A DNA stretch of 64,000 nt from Octopus vulgaris (Eukaryota), in the NCBI GenBank assembly GCA_951406725.2, contig OX597825.1:48732001-48796000 (forward strand), read 5' to 3'. The position numbers were made by a program, and so were the translations under genes. The notes below the pieces were generated by a model. That model was not told where the DNA came from, did not search any database, and was given only the letters and a program-made list of their open reading frames with translations. Each line of letters starts with the position of its first letter. Position 1 is the stretch's first letter. Shown in pieces: positions 4,723 through 62,158 of the stretch.

Positions 4723-4912
4723 GATTGGTTTCAAATTTTGACTCTGGGCCAGTAATTTCGGGGGACGGTGTAAATCGATACATCGACCCCAGTACTCAAC
4801 TGGTACTTATCTTATCGACTCTGAAAAGATGAAGGAAAAGTCGACCTCGGTGGAATTTGAACTCAGAACATAAAGAGTGGCGAAATGTCGCTAAACATTT
4901 TGATCGCCACCT
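4723..4912 (-). mobile_element. tRNA-derived SINE (Meta/MESC-like central domain) with 15 bp TSD
   Basis: Minus strand has B-box-like GAGTTCAAATTCC, then GGTCGAC..TTCATC..GTCGATAA..AGTACCAG. Flanked by taaactaccttgtaa (4708-4722) and taaactaccttgcaa (4913-4927). Confidence 0.85.
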
Positions 4913-4944: not shown

Positions 4945-5090
4945 TGAGCTGGCAAAGTTGGTGAATTAACAGAAACTATTAACGCGTTGGATATAATGCA
5001 TTTCGGTGTTTTCTTCTAATCACTGCATTCTGTGTTCAAATTCTGCCAAAATAGCCATCACCTTTCATCCTTTCAAGCTCGATAAAACAT
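4945..5090 (+). mobile_element. Degenerate SINE of the same superfamily
   Basis: gtgttcaaattctgcc..cctttcatcctttcaagctcgataaaa. Confidence 0.6.
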
Positions 5091-5099
5091 ACCCCTACC

Positions 5100-5167
<68 letters not shown>

Positions 5168-5174
<7 letters not shown>

Positions 5175-5967
5175 AAAGGGCTTAGTAAAATAAATTACTT
5201 TGCCGCATACTGAACTCATTAGAAATAGCAGCTAAAAAACTTTTTTAAAGCTATTTCTAATACTTAAAGAAAATCTCTCTCATATAGTGTTTGCTTAACT
5301 CAACTCACGAAAGTTTGGGGGTAAAGACATCAAAAAATCAAATGCAAAGGTTATTTGAGAACGTACGTTTCAAGATTAGTCAACACGACACTTCTATCAT
5401 CAGCTCAGAAACTCCTTGGTTTGGATTTGAAAACACTGAAAGTGAGAGCATACCCTTTCGGCTTCTCATCGCTTTCGAAGATCTGCTCGTAACTAACAGT
5501 GCCAACAAACTCAAATATGCAAGCGAAGAATTTCTGTTCTCCCCTTTCCACCAGCGTGGGTTAAAATCAGCAAACACTATGCTTATTTCGGTAAAATCCG
5601 AAGCATTAATTAGAGGGAGATTAATTATAATTTCAACAATTGAGGGTAAAATTAATTAATTATTAATCAATTTCACCAAGTGTTCAGTATGCAAAGGGAC
5701 CATTTTTTTGATGTCTTTACCCCCAAACTTTCGTGAGTTGAGTTAAGCAAACACTATATGAGAGAGATTTTCTTTAAGTATTAGAAATAGCTTTAAAAAA
5801 GTTTTTTAGCTGCTATTTCTAATGAGTTCAGTATGCGGCAAAGTAATTTATTTTACTAAGCCCTTTTATATAATGTAATAATTTGAATTCGCCTTAAATG
5901 GTCCCTTTGCATACTGAACACTTGGTGAAATTGATTAATAATTAATTAATTTTACCCTCAATTGTTG

Positions 5968-5975
<8 letters not shown>
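5168..5975. mobile_element. ORF-less, hammerhead-bearing two-arm element inside (TA)n (PLE-type terminus / retrozyme-like)
   Basis: Apparently exact inverted repeats 5168-5337 vs 5703-5872 and 5626-5705 vs 5896-5975; (TA)n on both sides; HHR at 5352-5413. Confidence 0.7.
5352..5413 (-). ncRNA. Type I hammerhead ribozyme, intact core
   Basis: Minus strand reads ugag-CUGAUGA-(stem II)-GAAAC-guac-GUU-cuca. Stem I is ugag/cuca; stem III region is palindromic (AACGUACGUU), as in PLE minimal HHRs. Confidence 0.7.
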
Positions 5976-6017
<42 letters not shown>

Positions 6018-6469
6018 CATGTGTGTGTGTGTGTATGTATATAATATGTATATATATATATATATGTATATCTTCATTCTAAACATAATTATAAATGAAA
6101 ACAAACATTGAAGGATCACTTAATATTTTTCAGTACAGTATCATCTAAGTTTAGAAGGAAAAGTTGACAGTCATTTTGAAGTTTCAGCCATGTAAGTTTT
6201 CATTGAGACAGACAGACAGAATTTATATAGGAACACACAAACTTACCTATATGCAGAAACGAATACACCTCCAAACACTAACATACATAAAATATTAGCA
6301 TCAACATGATGGGACATACACGTAACAGAAATACTCGCGGAAGCATCGTTGGATATATACATATAAAGCATACTGATATACACATGCATATGCACTCGCT
6401 TAAGCAAGAAAAACATAGACATGCGTGTATGTGTGCGTTTGTAGGAAAAGGTGTATAAAGGTGCAACGT

Positions 6470-9656: not shown

Positions 9657-10946
9657 CGAGGGACGTTCAATAAGTAATGCCTCTGACCCACTTGCAGTTG
9701 TTTGATCTAGCTGACATTTTGCATGTGCAATTATTCATATCTCTATAGAGTAAGTGGCACATTACAGCTCTGAATTAATTGTGGTTTCTGATTTACAGGT
9801 GTTTGAACCGAGTCAAGTGTGAAATGGAGCCTGTTGAGTGTCGAGCAGTGATCCGGTTTTTGTATTTGAAAGGACGCACACCACGGGAGACTTTTGATGA
9901 AATGAAAGTAACTTATGGTGATGATGCCCCATCATATGACCTTGTAAAACGCTGGCATCGTGAATTCAAACATGGTCGGAACTCTGTGGAAACAGCTCTC
10001 AGATCTGGTCGCCCCTTCTGCCATTGATGAGGCATCTGTCCGTCAAGTTGAGGCTGCCATTTTGGAAGATCGACGCATAATTATTCGCCAAATAGCCCAT
10101 GAGGTCAAGATTAGTACCGGGTCTGTGGAAACTATCATTCATGACCATTTGCATATGCAAAAGGTGTCTGCCAGATGGATTCCCAGGTTGCTCACGCCTT
10201 TCCAGAAACAAGAACGCGTCGAGTGCTCGAGGGTGAATTTGGAGATGTGCCAAGAAGATGAATCAAAATTTTTCAAAAGACTGATTACACAGGATGAAAC
10301 CTGGGTCCATCACGATGATCCAGAGACCAAAGTCGAGTCAATGCAGTGGAAGGACCGTGACTCACCCCCTCCAAAGAAGGCAAGGGTGCAGTCCTCCGCT
10401 GGCAAGGTCATGCTCACAGTCGTCTGGGACCAGGACGGAGTAGTGATGACAGATTTCCTGGCAAAGGGTACCACAATTGCAGGAGCCTATTATGCTTCAC
10501 TTTTGAGGAAATTAAGAGAAGTTATCAAAATCAAGAGGCGGGTCAAGATTAGCAAAGGTATCCTCCTCCTGCAGGACAACGCTCCGGTCCACAACTCGCT
10601 TGTCGCCAGATCAGAAGCACAGGCGTATGGCTATGAGCTCCTCCCCCATCCCCCTACTTTCCGGACCTTGCACCCTCTGATTTTCACCTCTTCCCAGTCA
10701 TGAAGTTGTTTTTGAAAGGAAAGCGTTTCCCTGATGATGCAGCCTTGATTTCTGAAGTCACGTTCAGGTTGGAGGACCAAGCTGGGGTCTTCTACAAAAA
10801 CGGTCTCCAGAGCTGCATCAAACAATGGGAGAAATGCGTTACTCTGGGTGGTTGCTATGTAGAAAAAGACTAATAACTGTGCCAAGTTTCGTTGCTCTAC
10901 TGCTATGGGAAGTGGGTCAGGGGCATTACTTATTGAACGCCCCTCG
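9657..10946 (+). mobile_element. Full-length mariner (DD34D-type), 1290 bp, TA TSD
   Basis: 37 bp TIRs cgagggacgttcaataagtaatgcctctgacccactt with 2 mismatches between ends; TA at 9655-9656 and 10947-10948. Confidence 0.97.
9824..10873 (+). pseudogene. Mariner transposase with two frameshifts (~10015, ~10655)
   Basis: MEPVECRAVIRFL..RSGRP / WIPRLL / TQDETWV / LQDNAPVH / LAPSDFHLF..GCYVEKD*. Confidence 0.93.
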
Positions 10947-11964
10947 TATGTATCTGTGCACACCTTTCAATGCCGTGTATGCCATAAGGTCTGCAATTCT
11001 AAAAGAGGTCTCAAAATACATTTTAAAGCCAACAAAGTTCAGAACTTAACGGCAGCTCTTGATGGTCCAAATCGGATATGCAATCTAAGTAAGTGTCTTT
11101 TCAATACGCTGTCTCGTTTAAAAAGCCACATCAGACGCCATGATGAATCTAAGGTATAGGTACAAGAGGTGGTCAGACTCTGCATACGGAGTAGACAACC
11201 ACCTTATATATATATATGTATACAAGACTATATTATTCTCTGTATATATGCGTGTCTCTGAGCGTACAAACATATATATGTATGCGTCTGCACTGGCGTA
11301 AATGAACAACCATATACACATTGTTTTAAAAAATATTAAAGAATTACTTATAAGTATTATTTTGGAATAATGTGTTTACGTCCCCGTAACTTAATGGGGA
11401 CCGTTACTTAAGCAGCAATGCAATTTCACTACTTCCATTGTATGGAGTATATAACGTTTATAATAACATTTCCACTAGAACCAGAAATGAAACCAGAAGC
11501 GTGAGATAGAAGCAGCCGTTTTCGCACTAGGTTTTTAAACGAAAGACATAAAGAGAAGCGCTTTCTTTAAGCCTTCATGTCATATTAAAAGAACAAAGAC
11601 AAAAAAATCAAACAGTGGGTATTTCAAAGGACAAGAGACTCGATTTACCAACTGATGATCGGAAACGATCAACTGTGAGTATTGGAAATTGGAACCTTTC
11701 AGTTATAATATACATACATACATAAATACATAATACATACATACATACATAAATACATAATACATACATACATACATAAATACATAATACATACATACAT
11801 ACATACATACAAACATATATATATAATTAAATAATATTGGGGTAAGTACCTTGTAATATGGCCATGCAAAGTTCTACACTTATTGGCCATCTGATGTCAT
11901 ACAGTAGAAATGCTCTTGCGAGTGTAAATACATCAAGAATTCAATAATATCTATATAGACAGAT

Positions 11965-12305
11965 AAATAATTGAAACTGGATTGAACGACAGTCTTTATT
12001 CAAAATCACTACAACTGTTTCGACATATTTTTACACTCGTAGTACATTGTTGAGATAATAAGATTACCACTTTGTGTAATCAAGATCATCCATCCAAAGT
12101 GTAAGATGCGCCTTCTCATGTGATTGTTTTAAATAATCCTTCGTTAGATCATACTGTCCTTTCACGAATTCATCTTATGACAACTTTGCATTTCAGTCCT
12201 CAATAAAGTATGTACAAGTATTAGCATTTATAGAATCGGCACCAGGTTTTGCTCCTTATATGGAAAGAAAATCCGATCCATTGATGTTTGAAAGCAAGCT
12301 TTATA

Positions 12306-12362
<57 letters not shown>

Positions 12363-12610
12363 GTGTGAGTATGTATAGGTGTATGCATGTATGCACACTT
12401 GCTTTAGTATTCATTATCCAACTAGCAGCATGATCTAACAAAGAACTTATTTAAAACAAACATCTGAAGAAGCGCATCTTACATTTTGGATGGATGGTAG
12501 TGATTACACAAGCTAATTTTAACATTTCACCAATATACAAGTGTAAAAATTTGTCGAAACAATTGTCGAGGTTTTAAATAAAGAATGCCATTCAATCCAT
12601 TTTCTATTAT
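11965..12610. mobile_element. Old inverted pair of PLE-type termini with HHR motifs around a (TA)n tract
   Basis: 11975-12160 is the diverged reverse complement of 12425-12610. Plus copy: CTGAAGA (12464-12470)..GAAAC-aatt-GTC (12556-12567), flanked by ttatttaaaac/gttttaaataa. Confidence 0.65.
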
Positions 12611-12689
12611 TTATTCATACATACATAGATACACACACACACACACAACACACACACACACACACACACACGCGCGCACACACACACAC

Positions 12690-20230: not shown

Positions 20231-20809
20231 CTAGATTATACCAATGGACGGCATCATTATTAAAGGTAATGAAAGTGTGGAGGATTGTCGGAATTTGAGA
20301 AGTGATTGATAAAATAACTTTCTGCATTTAGTTCTATCCATTTTCTTCTTGAGTTCAAACCCATCTTTGCCCTTCCTCATCCGTTGCATTTTGTGTCAGT
20401 TTAATAGACTATGCTCAATTCCAATATTTCAGACTTAGTCTTTATGTTAGGAACCTTTACTAATATTAATGAAATGGAAATAAGTTGTTATCGAAACAGC
20501 GGATAACATATATTTTCTTCCGTATAAATAGAATCTCATTGAAAATGTTTTACTTACATTCATTCAAGATCAATAAACTAAATATCGGTCATATTCGTTC
20601 TCCCTCATAGATTCGGTTCACTGGAATATTATCTACTCACCTCCTACAGACACGACTAGCTGAAATATTATCAGCGTTTCACTCCTATTGACCCACCTTA
20701 ATGGAATATCACTAAAGTTCCAACCCTAAACTAGAAATCACACAACTCACTGTATTTGTACTTAAATCTGTTATTAACCTATAACATTTGCATAACATAA
20801 TCCCATTTA

Positions 20810-21025
20810 TTGGTTTCAAAATTTGACAGAAGGCCAGAATTTTTGCGGGTGAGAGTAGATCGATTCAATTGATCCTAGCACTCCACTGGTACTCACTTTA
20901 TCAAGCCCAAAAAGATGAGAGGCAAAGTAGCCCTCTGAGGAATTTAAACTCAGAACGTGATGACGTATGAAATGCTGTAAGCATTTTGCCCGATGTGCTA
21001 ACGATTCAGCTAAGTCACTACCTTA
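20810..21025 (-). mobile_element. SINE, same family as 4723-4912
   Basis: ggtttcaaaattt..ctggtact..ttatc..aaagatga.aggcaaagt..gaatttaaactcagaac. Confidence 0.75.
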
Positions 21026-27884: not shown

Positions 27885-28527
27885 ATTTTATTGTGCCTGG
27901 GAAGAGTCATTCTCCTTTAGTGCCTTTTAATTTATCACACTCACTGGTTCGATTTCCACTCATTTACTTATTTATTTTTCCCAAAACTTTCGTTGCGTCT
28001 TGCAACCTTTTCAATAGTCGTTGACTCTGACTGCTTGTATGTGCATGAGTTTGTGTGACTATGTACGTGCGTCTGTTATGTATGAAAGTGTGTCTCCATA
28101 TGTGCCCTTGTGTGTGTATGTGTGAAGTGCACGTGTATGTATATGGTCATGTCTTTCAGTTTCCATGTGTGTATGTGCGTTGGTATGTGTGAGCTTGTCT
28201 GTGTATTACCTGTATACCTATCTATCTATCGATCGATCTATCTATCTATTTATCTAGTTACTTTCATATATGTTTACCTCCACGCCACACACACACACAC
28301 ACACACATACACACACGTCTACATGTATATTTCCTATTTATGAGGACCTACAGGATATTTCATTTATGAGGACTTACAAGAGTACGTCCTCATAAATGAA
28401 ACATCCCCAGTACTAAATAAGAAATATACGTAGAAGATAGTCATACACCAATACCTAGAGTTTATATATACACAGGTAGAGATGTTAGTAGGCTTTTATG
28501 TAGACGTATATATATATATATTTATCT

Positions 28528-28560
<33 letters not shown>

Positions 28561-28568
28561 GATTTATC

Positions 28569-28621
<53 letters not shown>

Positions 28622-28990
28622 CTATATATATATGTAGATAAATAGATATGGAAGTAAACGGATAGATAAATAGATAAATAGGTACATGGGTAATACGGAC
28701 AGACAAGCACACACATATACACACAAATACACACACAAATACACACGAATACACACATACATACATAAATACATATATACATACATACATATGAGTATAC
28801 ACATGCGCACAAACAAACACACAAACGAAAAGAACGCAGCTTTGATAACAGAGTCAATGGCTGTAGAAGAGGTTGCAAGATGCAACGGAAATTTTAGAAA
28901 AAATAAATGAAATGAGTAGAAATCGAACCGGTGAGTGTGTTAAGTAATAAGGCACTAAAAGAGAATGACTCTCTCCAGACACAATATTTA
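27885..28990. mobile_element. Inverted pair of PLE-terminus-like repeats flanking a microsatellite cluster
   Basis: 27885-28030 is the diverged reverse complement of 28848-28990. Confidence 0.6.
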
Positions 28991-34358: not shown

Positions 34359-34936
34359 AACTATATAATTCATCACTATTTAACCTTTAAAGGTATTTTT
34401 TAATATGCTGGCCATTGATAAAATCTTTTCGAAAATGTTATCCTATATTAGATGTAAATTTAATACTATTCACTTCCGGACTCTCTCACTATATGAGAAT
34501 TATCAGCTCGATGACTCGTGTCTTGAGGAATGTTGTAGAATTTCTATTTTGGATATATTTGGGGTACTTAAGTGTACACATGACTCAGTGTTTACCTCTT
34601 CCATGGGTGCGAGAAAGTATCTAATTTATTTTCTTATCGTATTTATCGCTGACGACGAGAAAATTCTGTATGAATTAACTCAGAAGTCGGGGCCGATTCT
34701 ATAATAACGAAATGTTTTAGAAATTTCTGTCGGCTTGCTTCGAGATGCGTGTTTATAGTGATGAATTATATAGTTAGTGACGATTTAAGTCTATTATCGG
34801 CATATTTGGCATTGGAAGTATTTTCTTTTGCTCTTATTTATAAATTGTTTATAAATTTAACCTTTAATGGAATTTTTTAATATGATGGCCATTGATAAAA
34901 TTTATTCGAAAATTTCATCCTATATTAGATGTAAAA
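34359..34936 (+). mobile_element. ORF-less ~477 bp monomer with terminal direct repeat, ending in (TA)n
   Basis: 34379-34458 recurs at 34856-34935; 34359-34379 is an inverted copy of 34755-34775; CTGACGA at ~34649. Homologous to 35522-36513. Confidence 0.6.
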
Positions 34937-34979
<43 letters not shown>

Positions 34980-35521: not shown

Positions 35522-35522
<1 letters not shown>

Positions 35523-36591
35523 ACTATTAATATAGGGTGAAGTTTGTTTACAGAAAAAAAAAATCCATCAAAAAAATGTGGCAGCATATTAAAATACCTT
35601 AAGGTTAAAATTATAAACAACTTATAAATAAGGGCAAAAGAAAATTATTTCTATGCCAATATACTGATAACAGACTTTTAAATCGTCAATTTCCACATAT
35701 TATTTACTCGCTACAGAAAACACGAAGAGCTGAAATCGAGGAAAGCCAGCCAATAGAATTTTTTTAAAAAGTTCGTTATTTCTATATTGAATTAATTTCG
35801 GAATTAATCTCATAATAGATTTTTTCCTCTTCAGTAGAAAATACGAAAAGATATAAATAAGATACATGCGCCCATGGAAAAAAGCCGAAGCAAAAATCAT
35901 GAGTATATATAAGTACCCCAGATATATCTAAAAATAAAATCCTTTGGTCAGCCTCAGCACACGTGTGAACTGTTCTCCACTACAGCTTATAGTGGTTACC
36001 GGTCCCTATAGAGAATAGTAATAAGTCTACTACTAATATAGGATGAAGTTTGTTTACAGAAAAAAATTCCATAAAAAAATTTGGCAGCATATTAAAATAC
36101 CTTTAAGGTTAAAATTATAAACAACTTATAAATAAGGGCAAAAGAAAATTATTTCTATGCCAATATGCTGATAGCAAACTTTTAAATTGTCAATTTCCAC
36201 ATATTATTTACTCGCTACAGAAAACACGAAGAGCTGAAATCGAGGAAAGCCAGCCAATAGAATTTTTTAAAAAAGTTCGTTATTTCTATATTGAATCAAT
36301 TTCGGGATTAATCTCATAATAGATTTTTTCCTCTTCAGTAGAAAATACGAAAAGATATAAATAAGATCCTTACATGCGCCCATGGAAAAAAGCCGAAGCA
36401 AAGTACCCCAGATATATCTAAAAATAAAATCCTTTGGTCAGCCTCAGCACACGTGTGAACTGTTCTCCACTACAGCTTATAGTGGTTACCAGTCCCTATA
36501 GCGAATAGTAATATGTGGAAATTGACAATTTAAAAGTCTGTTATCAGCATATTGGCATAGAAATAATTTTCTTTAGCACTTATTTATAAGT

Positions 36592-36594
<3 letters not shown>
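35522..36594 (-). mobile_element. Tandem dimer of a ~506 bp monomer plus inverted arm, inside (TA)n
   Basis: 35522-36027 repeats at 36028-36513; 36509-36594 is the reverse complement of ~35617-35703; minus-strand CTGAAGA once per monomer. Confidence 0.8.
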
Positions 36595-41629: not shown

Positions 41630-41637
<8 letters not shown>

Positions 41638-42129
41638 ATATTTCGGAATGGTCATATTGCCAGTTTAGCCAATAAAAACACACGCACTATATATTTGGTG
41701 TTATTTTGCTTCAGTGATATTTATTTTTTACATTAATCTTAATCTTATTTCGGCCAAAGTTCTTTCGTCACACTCCTGTGACCGCATCAGTGGTCCTTTG
41801 TTTTCTTCTCACTTACTTGTGTCTCTCCTTACTAACCGTCAGCCATTTTGTATTTCTATTGTATGACGGTTAGTAAGGAGAGACACAAGTAAGTGAGAAG
41901 AAAACAAAGGACCACTGATGGGGTCACAGGAGTGTGACGAAAGAACTTTGGCTGAAATAAGATTAAGATTAATGTAAAAAATAAATATCACTGAAGCAAA
42001 ATAACACCAAATATATAGTGCGTGTGTTTTTATTGGCTAAACTGGCAATATGACCATTCCGAAATATAACAATATCTGTTTCAACACACGACTTCACATA
42101 AAAAATCTTGCACAACAAATATTTAAACG

Positions 42130-43434: not shown

Positions 43435-43470
<36 letters not shown>

Positions 43471-43473
<3 letters not shown>

Positions 43474-44020
43474 TAGTTTTATTTTTATTTTTATAGCGTG
43501 CTTTCACTTCACTACCGAGCGCAGCTCTGTGTGCCTTGGGTATGTGCTGTGATTTGTTGTGATGCTCTGATGGTTATTGTATGGAAAGTGTTCTGCGTAG
43601 GATGTGTGCAGTGCCTAGTAGTGCAATTTTCTGTATGTTATATGTGTTTGTAAGTCCTGGTGTTTTTGTTATGTATTTGTCTGAATATTTTTTTATCATG
43701 CCTAATGCACCTACTATGATAGGAATTGTTTCTGTTTTCAGATTCCACATTCTAGTTACCTCTATTTCCAGGTCTTTGTATTTTGAGAGTTTCTCCATTT
43801 CTTTTAGAGACACGTTGTCATCTGCCGGTACTGATACATCAATTAGAAAGCATTTTTTTTCTTCATGGTCTCTGACAACTATATCTGGTCTGTTGGCCTT
43901 AATTTCTCTATCTGTGTGTATCGGCATATCCCAGAGTATGGTTGCTTTCTCGTTTTCTGTGACCTTTTCTGGTGTGTGCCTATACCATCTTTTTTCTGTT
44001 GTTATTCCATAATGTTGGCA

Positions 44021-44022
<2 letters not shown>
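43471..44022 (-). mobile_element. Young 5'-truncated R4/Dong non-LTR element in (TAA)n
   Basis: Open RLE domain ILWD.PIHTD..IKANRPDIV...LIDVSVP.D.N...KE.EK..KYKDL..IVGALG..LGTAHILRR; stop at 43574; ~100 nt 3'UTR; (TAA)n on both sides. Confidence 0.93.
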
Positions 44023-44089
<67 letters not shown>

Positions 44090-44115
44090 CATTATTGTTA
44101 TTATCATTATTATTA

Positions 44116-54741: not shown

Positions 54742-55216
54742 CATGTATGTTTGCATATATGTATCATTTGAAGTTACATAATGCGGCCTGGATATCACGA
54801 AAGATGGGATTGAAATGATTACAAAATGGCTGCTTTGTATAGAGAAGACAGTGAATATATAAAGTGGAGACAAGATGATAGATATAAAACACTAAATACA
54901 AAGTCACGGTGGTTCAAAAATCCGGTGGCCTTTACCATTAGATATAAAATAACTTTACATTGTTATTGTACAATCGTATATATAGATTAGCATATAGTAT
55001 ATAAGTTTTGAAAATTAGATAGAAACTGAATTGAAATGTTATATATATAATTATATATATATAATTTCAGTAAAACAATTAAGATTCAAGTGAGTTCCAA
55101 TGAATTCACATGAATGTGGTACTTAACTTAGCTTCACCAGAAATCTTTATGGTATTAACCATAAAATAATGTGGGGTGATTATAAACAAGAAAAAAGCAA
55201 CAAGAATGGATTAGTT

Positions 55217-55307
55217 GTTCAGTACAATTGTTTCATACGAAGAACAGATTTATTAAAAGCTGTAAAAATTGCAACAAATACAAGCGTCCTGTATTCATCA
55301 GCCAAAA
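55217..55307 (-). ncRNA. Type I HHR, intact core (sense 3' terminus of the PLE)
   Basis: uuuugg-CUGAUGA-auac..guau-GAAAC-aauu-GUA-cugaac. Confidence 0.75.
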
Positions 55308-56220
55308 CACATATGAGTTTTCCAAACATCCTATGGGGTGAGGCTACACTCATGAAGTATCGAAGAGAGTTCTATGAAAAGCAAAAGTTAGATTGTAAGC
55401 AGACTTAAAATGTTTTCTAATGATGTACAGTTTTATAAAAGGTTCTAAACAGGTACAGTTAGAAAGAAAGAACACCAGTGGAAGAGCTCACAGATATCTA
55501 TTTAAGATATATTAGAGTTTAGTTTTTTTAGTAAATACAAGATAGACCTAGCTCTATACGATTATTCTATACGATTTTTAAAAAAATATTTAAGAGTCTT
55601 GATTTTTGAGTGAATACAAGATGAACCTAATTCGATACGGTTATTAAAAAAAATTTTTTTTCTATGCTTTAAAATTTCATATGTCTTCCATGGAGCAGAG
55701 TTGGCAACCTACCCTGTTATTTCTATAAGGCATCGCTCTTCTAACTATTTCCCAATTAAGGTTATATTTAATATTATTACTTTTGAGTTCCCAGATCTTA
55801 CTGGAAAGTGTGGTGCAGCCAGCTTTATGACGTAACTTAAAAGAGGAGATATGTTTGTTTAAATTTTATAGTACAACCCCAATAAAAAAAAATTGTTATT
55901 CTCAGTAGTTATGGTACATTTATAGATTACGTTGTGGACCCCACACATACCAGGTTCCGGGCATTTTGACTTAATCCTACAATTACACCTAGGGGGATCA
56001 TCTTCAGATTTAGAATTATTTAGGGATAGATATCTCATATTGCTGCTATTCAGATAATTATGAGTATAATTATCGTTATTATAGGTAATGTTGTTATCTA
56101 AAGCTGTGTTATCATTTATCGATCCGCTTACACTATCATTTAGCTCTATAGCCATATCATAATTACCCCCATTATTGGTATTAGCCTCACTCCCTAGGAT
56201 GTTTGGAAAACTCATATGTG

Positions 56221-56311
56221 TTTTGGCTGATGAATACGGGACACTTGTATTTGCTGCAATTTTTGCAGCTTTTAATAAATCTGTTCTTCGTATGAAACAA
56301 TTGTACTGAAC
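56221..56311 (+). ncRNA. Type I HHR, intact core (inverted pseudo-LTR copy)
   Basis: CTGATGA 56227-56233, stem II atacgg/tcgtat, GAAAC 56294-56298, palindromic CAATTG, GTA 56303-56305. Confidence 0.78.
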
Positions 56312-56339
56312 AACTAATCCATTCTTGTTGCTCTTTTCT

Positions 56340-56372
<33 letters not shown>

Positions 56373-60435: not shown

Positions 60436-60956
60436 AGGGAGAAGGAAAAAACAGAAGCGGCGCATAAAATTATGTAATCTAAATCAATCAATGATTGGTA
60501 CTTGCTGCCAGCCTATAAAACCAATATTTTACCAAATATAATGTGTTTCTCAATCTACCGTTTTGATTCTTTAATTAATTTCCTTTATTTCTCTTCGATT
60601 AGTTAACTTAATATTTCTTCATTATCAGTAATGATTGAGAACTAATCCCATCTTCAATTACCCAGAAATATTTAGGCGACGGAAAAAAATGATTAAAATG
60701 ATTATTCATTAAATGTTTCTTATGAAAAAATGATTTTTTTCTGTTTTAGTAAGCTCCTTGGACAATTGAAACCTCTCACTTGCAAGTGTCTTCTACATTA
60801 TAAAGCCAGAAATGACACTTAATTTTACACTCTGTGACTTGTCTACCAATATATGTTGAAAAGAGATTAAATTGATGCTATTGCAAGGAATGTGTCACTG
60901 TGAAATTAGACACTGTTTTGGGTTATCTTGCTTTAATAATGGTGATGATGATGATG

Positions 60957-61020
<64 letters not shown>

Positions 61021-61022
<2 letters not shown>

Positions 61023-61543
61023 CAGAAAAAAGATGGTATAGGCACACACCAGAAAAGGTCACAGAAAACGAGAAAGCAACCATACTCTGGGATATGCCGA
61101 TACACACAGATAGAGAAATTAAGGCCAACAGACCAGATATAGTTGTCAGAGATCATGAAGAAAAAAAATGCTTTCTAATTGATGTATCAATACCGGCAGA
61201 TGACAACGTGTCTCTAAAAGAAATGGAGAAACTTTCAAAATACAAAGACCTGGAAATAGAGGTAACCAGAATGTGGAATCTAAAAACAGAAACCATTCTT
61301 ATCATAGTAGGTGCATTAGGCATGATAAAAAATATTCAGATAAATACATAACAAAAACACCAGGACTTACAAACACATATAACATACAGAAAATTGCACT
61401 ACTAGGCACTGCACACATCCTACGCAGAACACTTTCCATACAATAACCATCAGAGCATCACAACAAATCACAGCACATACCTAAGGCACACAGAGCTGCG
61501 CTCGGTAGTGAAGTGAAAGCACGCTATAAAAATAGAACTACTG
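61021..61543 (+). mobile_element. Second young R4/Dong 3' fragment in (TAA)n
   Basis: Nearly identical to the reverse complement of 43471-44000; 1 nt shorter in an A-run at ~61330, giving a frameshift. Confidence 0.93.
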
Positions 61544-61547
61544 AATG

Positions 61548-61607
<60 letters not shown>

Positions 61608-61624
61608 TTCATTTCAATTATACG

Positions 61625-62158
61625 CATAATCCCTAAAATTTTGGGGAGGGTGCTACTCGATTACATCGACCCACTGCTAACTGGCATCTGAGTTCAAAAC
61701 ATAAAGAGCTGGAAGAAATGCCGTTATGGATTTTGTTCGGCGCACTAGCGATTCGGCCAGCTCGTCGTGTTAACAACAACGATTTTAATTATAATGGCTT
61801 CAGACTTTGGCACAAAGTCAGTAATTTCGGTGGAAGTGTAGGTCGACTGTATCGACCTCAGTGATCAACTGGTACTTATTTTATCGATCCGCAAAGATGA
61901 AGGGAGGAATTTGAACACAGATTGTAAAGACAGATGAAAAGCATTTTACCCGGCGTGCTAACGATGCTGTCAGCTCGCCGCCTTAATAATAATCTTCTCT
62001 ACTAAAATCACAAGGTTTGAAATTTGTGGTGAAGGGGCAAGGCAATTTCATCGAAACCAGTATTCAACTGGTACTTAATTTATCGACCCCGAAAGGATAA
62101 AAGGCAATGTCGACCTCGGTGGAATTTGAGCTCGGAACGTAGCGACTGGTGAAATACT
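61625..62158 (-). mobile_element. Three tandem Meta/MESC-like SINE copies
   Basis: Repeated atcgacc..caactggtactta.tttatcga..gaatttga blocks at ~61625-61772, 61800-61985 and 61995-62158. Confidence 0.8.

Follow-up and report, generated by a model that had tools for sequence, protein, structure and literature searches.

The window, by which we mean the whole 64,000-nt stretch of DNA that was analysed, is animal DNA rich in microsatellites. Two (TA)n arrays (5100–5174 and 5972–6071) enclose an insert of 809 nt. It consists of two arms, with the 3' ends of both facing outwards (Table 1). Read in RNA sense on the minus strand from 5705, the long arm runs through segment B, segment X, a hammerhead motif (HHR) and segment A into (TA)n. 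Read on the plus strand from 5704, the short arm runs from A through a spacer to B and again into (TA)n. This is the permuted order that a sequence-only reading of the stretch had described. The same reading took the repeats to be identical and the arms to meet in a T run, and both statements hold: the two copies of A are exact reverse complements over 171 nt and the two copies of B over 80 nt, each with 0 mismatches, and the overlap at the junction is 2 nt. The long arm crosses the predicted ribozyme cut site without interruption, and the short arm starts 22 nt past it. The locus thus holds a single hammerhead and head-to-head partial units.

Put into a single order, the parts of both arms make up a unit of 560 nt (34% GC), slightly longer than the ~555 nt first estimated. 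TATA occurs four times in the unit, spread over three places, and both arm ends lie within 2 nt of such a word (chance ~4e-4, with the window width picked post hoc), in agreement with the earlier remark that each arm stops near a TATA-like site. Counted strictly, the unit overlaps the (TA)n target by 2 nt at the A end and by 4 nt at the B end. No target duplication is readable at 5167–5975, the flanks being microsatellite. The insert has no long direct terminal repeats, there were no tRNA gene calls and no further copy of the 560-nt unit within the 64-kb window, and a bacterial promoter scan gave no result. The left copy of A contains a 13+7 bp hairpin (~5214–5265). Positions 5555–5580 of X are complementary to positions 5732–5757 of A, and this pairing closes the predicted circle fold. 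A short dispersed repeat, which we take to be an octopus SINE, occurs at 4724–4902, 20809–20988, 61795–61903 and 62049–62155, the first copy just left of the insert.

Table 1. Features of the 809-nt insert and of related inserts in the window.
Feature	Position	Strand	Remarks
(TA)n target array, left flank	5100–5166		
Long arm, 539 nt, B-X-HHR-A, RNA sense	5167–5705	minus	3' end is site a, at 5167
Segment A, left copy, 171 nt	5167–5337	minus	identical to 5704–5874
Stop-free frame, 123 codons, antisense to the hammerhead	5288–5659	plus	judged non-coding
Hammerhead motif, type I	5340–5420	minus	descriptor match; cleavage predicted
Segment X, non-coding	5421–5625	minus	long hairpin at ~5425–5520
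Segment B, left copy, 80 nt	5626–5705	minus	identical to 5896–5975; 5' end of the long arm
Head-to-head junction of two 5'-truncated arms	5704–5705		2-nt overlap within a T run
Short arm, 272 nt, A-spacer-B, RNA sense	5704–5975	plus	3' end is site b, at 5975
Predicted multibranch fold	5826–5920	plus	11-bp outer stem and inner hairpins; predicted to enclose site a
Spacer linking A to B, 21 nt	5875–5895	plus	join present in 4/4 runs compared
(TA)n/(TG)n target array, right flank	5976–6071		
Second hammerhead family, tandem dimer, 504-nt period	35522–36593	minus	hammerhead matches at 36338 and 35834
Near-perfect palindrome (96%), 446 nt, between (TA)n arrays	41630–42075		minimal hammerhead-like motif in each arm
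Head-to-head insert, 166-nt arms	55181–56347		hammerhead motif in both arms; 60-nt stem II region

The hammerhead motif and the coding capacity of the unit

The motif has a CUGAUGA core (5403–5397, minus strand) in a type I hammerhead layout. Stem I consists of 4 bp and a distal helix; stem II has a U-U at its base, with GAAAC at 5371–5367; stem III has 2 bp closed by a palindromic GUAC loop; and a GUU triplet precedes the predicted cut, between 5360 and 5359. Position numbering within 5340–5420 follows the hammerhead convention. A type I descriptor, composed after the motif had been seen, matches it; of 5000 shuffles of the whole 809-nt element, 1 matches as well. Rfam gave 0 hits in the window at gathering score, and with E values up to 10 it gave 26 hits in 5000–6100, the hammerhead not among them. 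The minimum-energy fold contains stem II and the distal helix, with the hammerhead core mis-paired (z +0.9 to +1.5). One listed family variant hits the free seventh position of the core, and a loose end in one public run (X2, see below) carries a variant with another letter at that position together with a paired stem II base. On the opposite strand of the element, a search for hammerheads and Rfam families found no hammerhead core.

The motif resembles the axolotl retrozyme hammerhead HHR_Amex2, which has a 2-bp stem III with a tetraloop and a U-U at the stem II base, and which is described as cutting to 22% as a monomer and more as a dimer (PMC7229834). Animal hammerheads typically have a short palindromic helix III (PMC4209133), and among 9 Xenopus retrozyme dimers just 1 is described as cutting in vitro (10.64898/2026.07.22.740005). 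By this analogy the hammerhead is of a weak type, with self-cleavage predicted. A metagenome scan with a strict hammerhead pattern had 0 hits, one with a looser pattern had 6, and a scan of viral contigs had 10; these 16 matches were set aside as chance, with a stem I of at most 1 bp in all and no likeness outside the pattern (best E 0.01). The main X2 contig stops at 5361, adjoining the predicted cut. We did not take this as a sign of cleavage, as a variant letter there gives the same result and contigs cannot show ends.

The longest ATG frame of the RNA-sense circle encodes 29 aa, and for this strand the earlier statement that there is no open reading frame stands. The antisense strand has a stop-free frame of 123 codons, a length reached by 24 of 2000 shuffled circles. 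This frame is not conserved. It belongs to no Pfam family, none of 6 candidates proved to be a homolog (0/6) and the best Atlas score was 0.83; the 31 listed family substitutions within it comprise 4 silent, 26 replacing and 1 stop, and 8 of the 9 listed indels shift the reading frame. We rejected it as a gene, for it lacks a family, a homolog and a look-alike and is broken by family variants. The 560-nt unit is accordingly treated, from its sequence, as having no protein-coding capacity. The insert contains no reverse transcriptase or GIY-YIG endonuclease frame, so it is not an autonomous EN+ Penelope-like element (PLE).

Folded as a circle, the RNA-sense unit is far more stable than its shuffles (z −7.4, 40 shuffles), as is the opposite polarity (z −6.5); ten control stretches gave z values of −1.45 to +0.81 (12 shuffles each). 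Family variants did not significantly avoid paired positions (10 of 40 variants disrupt a pair, against a mean of 13.0 under the null, P = 0.15; the test used 40 of 65 variant rows). The strong fold in both polarities, and the rarity of so long a stop-free frame among shuffled circles, would suit an integrated viroid-like RNA or a small coding circular RNA with the antisense frame as its gene; near-identical inverted repeats are, besides, prone to mis-assembly. We regard a viroid-like origin or an assembly artefact as very improbable. The unit has neither ribozymes in both polarities, as judged from hammerheads and Rfam families, nor a conserved open reading frame, its antisense frame being broken by family variants and without a homolog. 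In addition, the family is abundant in runs guessed to be DNA from two organisms, where similar junctions occur at single-locus depth.

Copies of the family in public runs

Of 24 public runs listed, 20 contain the sequence in question. They cover three organisms in 10 studies, and no run carries an RNA record. Four of the 20 were compared: X1 and X12, guessed to be DNA (organisms A and B), and X2 and X19, guessed to be RNA. X1 was covered to ~80% and is possibly the window's own source. The reference for the comparison was 5338–5895, in which each part of the unit is present once. It was matched by 4501 contigs in X1, 55 in X2, 28 in X19 and 1768 in X12, and 30 of 30 bins were covered in each run.

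The join from spacer to B (5705/5895, opposite strands) was found in all four runs, in 11, 1, 2 and 6 contigs with depths of 1522, 92, 131 and 9317. The continuation from the hammerhead into A was present as loose ends, again in all four (14, 1, 2 and 4 contigs). Contigs that read from X into the hammerhead core occur in X19 and X2, and contigs that read from B into X occur in X1 and X2, the latter with only 13–27 letters within B, below the 31-letter rule. No contig in the four runs covers the entire 560-nt unit. Because the spacer-to-B and hammerhead-to-A joins recur in 4/4 runs, the permuted order of B and A is, as far as short contigs show, the family's own cycle; a single linear order is not what the other copies present. 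Single contigs reach depths of >1000, against 28–82 for junction contigs (contig depth, not copy number), and the family is a high-copy one, probably with hundreds or more copies in the genome.

Head-to-head junctions are not confined to the window. Among the 15 joint rows listed (32 in all), 13 lead from an antisense half into a sense half, which is head-to-head in the 560-nt layout. With 4 from a second table there are at least 17 other junctions of this form, 15 in X1 and 2 in X12; one joint row (5706 to 5448), whose kind is not indicated, was excluded. The 17 have scattered breakpoints and depths of 28–82, as for single loci; where given, the shorter side of these contigs is 21–28 letters long, a class flagged as weak. 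Scattered endpoints in other copies had been named beforehand as the check on a repeating non-coding template with one hammerhead, and together with the joins in 4/4 runs they bear that proposal out. Nine of the 17 have an arm that begins in X, within the hammerhead or at the B/X border, and these arms, if they end at site a or b, would cross the cut site like the long arm at 5167–5705. Seven of the 17 breakpoints fall within 5830–5846, immediately 3' of A's long hairpin (P = 0.03 for a width set post hoc), a lead for stalling of the reverse transcriptase at that hairpin.

These junctions bear on the idea that a satellite array was rearranged at the DNA level, by inversion or repair, with no RNA step involved. 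Template switching during repair is possible in hairpin-rich AT DNA. Unequal crossover, moreover, can expand retrozyme-type repeats as satellites (10.64898/2026.07.22.740005). We nevertheless give this explanation very little weight: the 17 other junctions are all head-to-head, like this one, and break at different places, both 3' ends at 5167–5975 face (TA)n in an insert that is isolated within the window, and the form recurs in unrelated hammerhead families, of which one carries a GIY-YIG-like frame (see below).

The main variant in X19 has a depth of >100 from the last part of A through the spacer and B, and of ~4 over the adjoining X at 5604–5622, and 43% of the matched sequence in this run continues into unlike sequence. 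This variant may be either a diverged sister family or a coding partner with a common module. In both runs guessed to be DNA the depth changes 3- to 4-fold at 5623. Such a step would suit many copies that end at site b; we did not use it as evidence, as summed contig depth is no copy number.

The X19 observations would also fit a reading in which the arms are only the terminal repeat (pseudo-LTR) of a longer, coding PLE and the 560-nt cycle is apparent. Coding PLEs share the architecture, and a coding insert of the same form lies at 55181–56347. There is, however, no sense-strand ATG frame longer than 29 aa; in the long arm X and the hammerhead come within 290 nt after B; depth over X is high in all four runs; and none of the 24 loose ends listed (of 212) resembles a branch into a coding frame. 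With no coding middle seen among the listed contig ends, we consider it very unlikely that B belongs to such a terminal repeat.

Template and route of insertion

The insert is probably a young, high-copy, non-coding hammerhead retroelement of Octopus, that is, a non-LTR retrozyme or non-autonomous PLE with a 560-nt unit. At the level of sequence, the retrozyme assignment rests on the hammerhead motif, the lack of coding, the high copy number, the 560-nt cycle and the circle fold. Non-LTR retrozymes of animals have been described by Cervera and de la Pena 2020 (PMC7229834) and by Li, Clavereau and Pollet 2026 (10.64898/2026.07.22.740005). Like those of metazoans, the unit is AT-rich, non-coding and highly self-paired, has one type I hammerhead and belongs to a high-copy, heterogeneous family. 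Its 560 nt compare with described unit lengths of 170–400 nt (PMC7229834) and 51–972 nt (10.64898/2026.07.22.740005). Retrozymes of this kind are described as tandem arrays, whereas 5167–5975 is a head-to-head pair of partial units; the short contigs of the four runs revealed no tandem array of this family. The words "inverted", "head-to-head", "microsatellite" and "Octopus" are absent from the main text of PMC7229834.

In form the insert resembles the insertions of Neptune- and Naiad-type PLEs (PMC8557442, PMC3846280, PMC4209133), as described there: it shares an inverted 5'-truncated copy at the 5' end, the partial-tandem logic, unequal 3' ends, a (TA)n target (at one locus here) and a short palindromic helix III. 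Inverted 5'-truncated copies and a bias towards (TA)n or other microsatellites are standard in PLEs (PMC8557442). Unlike Neptune and Naiad elements, the insert has no reverse transcriptase or endonuclease frame, and its 3' ends are offset by 101 nt rather than by a tail of 30–40 nt.

We propose the following route. A tandem source locus would yield an RNA longer than one unit, and the weak hammerhead would cut part of this RNA, probably as a dimer, with monomers perhaps ligated to circles as in known retrozymes. A Neptune-type PLE protein, acting in trans, may nick both strands of the (TA)n target. Reverse transcription would start from two fixed internal RNA sites, a and b, which lie 101 nt apart, 193 and 294 nt past the predicted cut site. 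The cDNA from site a would run for 539 nt through the ribozyme cut site and that from site b for 272 nt, and these two 5'-truncated cDNAs would be joined head to head over the 2 nt observed at the junction. The permuted order would then follow from two starts and two stops at different places of a repeating unit.

L1 twin priming likewise joins two target-primed cDNAs head to head over microhomology, and on linear RNA its arms do not overlap. Here, unlike in L1, A and B were each copied twice and in permuted order, so a repeating template is needed. The nearest precedent is the anole Poseidon element PAc, in which reverse transcription starts at two internal sites, both target strands are extended and ribozyme cleavage is not required (Frangieh et al. 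2024, PMC11167929). As here, the starts of PAc lie downstream of its hammerhead, and unprocessed RNA is a good template for it. The PAc starts are 30–40 nt apart and have no homology to the target, in contrast to the 101 nt and the TA overlaps of 2–4 nt at our locus; PAc also belongs to another clade, and the template here is non-coding (PMC11167929).

The earlier interpretation had both arms copied from a circular or tandem RNA. The repeating unit was upheld; circle and uncleaved tandem are not separable by contigs. Since the long arm crosses the cut site, the template at this locus was either an uncleaved multimer or a re-ligated circle, and an uncleaved tandem transcript accounts for the arms about as well as a circle does. 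With a linear tandem, at least one of A and B must have been copied off two separate units, and only a very homogeneous array would then leave them identical. With a circle this identity comes free, which lends the circle modest support; conversely, a weak ribozyme makes uncleaved multimers likely and weighs against it. On balance we lean slightly towards an uncleaved tandem transcript as the template of this insert; a circle is the less probable of the two but a serious candidate, and some other template is improbable. A circle is therefore plausible, yet the arms alone do not imply one. That an RNA circle of the 560-nt unit occurs in the cell we hold, by analogy, to be somewhat more probable than that it does not. 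Minority alleles at 5742 and 5745 are common to both arms, which indicates that the two derive from one molecule or one source locus.

Fold-back of a single cDNA is a different way to reach the same arms. A 640-nt cDNA would start at site b, make one full turn of the unit as far as the beginning of B, prime itself over T/A microhomology and copy its own A-spacer-B; the spacer-B "tail" would afterwards be trimmed from the other end, and a tandem or circular template would still be required. On this route neither the 171/171 identity of A nor the 2-nt junction needs a second RNA. Self-priming has been proposed for the head-to-head palindromes of rotifer Penelope elements (PMC3846280), the tail has been ascribed to endonuclease-mediated resolution (PMC8557442), and the near-perfect palindrome at 41630–42075 is compatible. 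Against it, the PLE protein of the anole, once purified, nicks the two target strands and extends both (PMC11167929). Several junctions (for example 259/165, 240/71 and 235/156 in unit positions) can, moreover, be read as short non-overlapping arms, with their 3' ends unseen, and two such arms cannot arise by fold-back. We consider fold-back unlikely, although it is the strongest of the rivals to two separately primed cDNAs.

Priming by TA microhomology, as first proposed, appears weaker than stated. The overlaps with the target are real, but they amount to only 2 and 4 nt here and to about 0–4 nt in other inserts, so that TA pairing probably fine-tunes start sites that are otherwise set by the RNA fold or the protein. 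The predicted fold at 5826–5920 is a candidate recognition module for the reverse transcriptase. A bolder version, which we offer as a conjecture that is probably wrong in at least some part, is that Octopus retrozymes are retrotransposed from RNA circles and that a folded module of ~100 nt, common to families that cannot be aligned, directs a Neptune-type protein to both starts. If this were true, the insertions would supply the footprint so far lacking between the Penelope machinery and retrozyme RNA circles, with the module as a transferable signal by which target-primed insertion is directed to (TA)n. The 101-nt offset, which exceeds the 30–40-nt tail described for PLEs, counts against the proposed PLE-type route as a whole. 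In the window we found no coding partner that resembles the 560-nt unit in sequence, and the unit has no likeness to the Neptune-like insert at 55181–56347.

Both ingredients are already known kinds: non-LTR retrozymes, and the inverted 5'-truncated arms of PLEs. A literature search, with supplements, repeat databases and most subscription journals outside its coverage, found no cephalopod retrozyme and no inverted retrozyme insertions described. What the locus adds is that a young non-coding family bears the insertion form of PLEs, with head-to-head arms at many loci and with unequal 3' ends and a microsatellite target at 5167–5975. The case for mobilisation of retrozymes by PLEs has been built on ribozymes that the two have in common, on their co-occurrence and on similar terminal repeats (PMC7229834; 10.64898/2026.07.22.740005). 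A Penelope-type footprint on a hammerhead family bears on this link, so far argued only indirectly, and makes two questions testable in the genome: which of circle and uncleaved multimer serves as template, and how the positions of both starts are set.

Other inserts in the window

Three more inserts of similar form lie in the window (Table 1), with 3'-end offsets of 96, ~120 and ~55 nt to set beside the 101 nt at 5167–5975. The first, 35522–36593, has (TA)n at either end, an inverted arm of 85 nt and 3' ends that are offset by 96 nt, and by the two-unit definition it is a retrozyme. An older relative of its family (~70% alike, 477-nt period, with a (TA)n end) occupies 34378–34937, where the hammerhead descriptor found no match. 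In the palindrome at 41630–42075 the offset consists of ~55 extra nt on one side.

The insert at 55181–56347 appears, from its one copy, to have a long arm that reaches ~120 nt beyond the end of the short arm. This long arm holds a frame-shifted frame with a Cys-rich linker and a GIY-YIG-like stretch. Proteins that match the frame come from Octopus sinensis and Octopus vulgaris (84–92% identity), on which basis we regard the host as an Octopus, and one Octopus homolog (P0001) matches PF01541 at E 0.003, below the cut-off. A Cys-rich linker preceding the nuclease is described as a mark of Neptune-type elements (PMC8557442, PMC3846280), and judged by its sequence the insert is a broken Neptune-like Penelope element. 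The Octopus homolog is publicly named myelin-regulatory-factor-like, apparently a mis-annotation.

In the alignment, an arm end of 35522–36593 lies no more than 3–4 columns from site a, and a similar fold is predicted to enclose it. Aligned as whole units, the 560-nt family and two other units of the window are no more alike than chance, shuffles reaching the score in 221/500 and 486/500 cases. A model built from the two other families alone had 5821–5927 as its best outside hit (E 0.14, 19.5 bits; best unrelated stretch 14.3). In the shared fold 6 of 21 pairs change on both sides (4 sequences, two of them nearly identical), a count for which the region was picked by eye and the structure came from the same alignment. 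Kinship of the 560-nt and 504-nt families through a shared predicted fold is thus a lead only. Overlaps of 0–4 nt with the target, and one end at the same place of a fold common to the second family, would by analogy point to internal start sites defined by the protein, as in Frangieh et al. 2024 (PMC11167929).

Several further repeats were seen in the window. A dispersed pair at 43438–44096 and 60935–61576 is 95% alike over 659 nt, each member inside (TAA)n arrays, and has the look of a 3' end left by a further retroelement that targets microsatellites. A Mariner-type transposase frame lies at 9948–10703 (PF01359, E 4e-22), and older inverted repeats at 11963–12614 (80%) and 27889–28986 (70%) are arranged around central TA-rich arrays.
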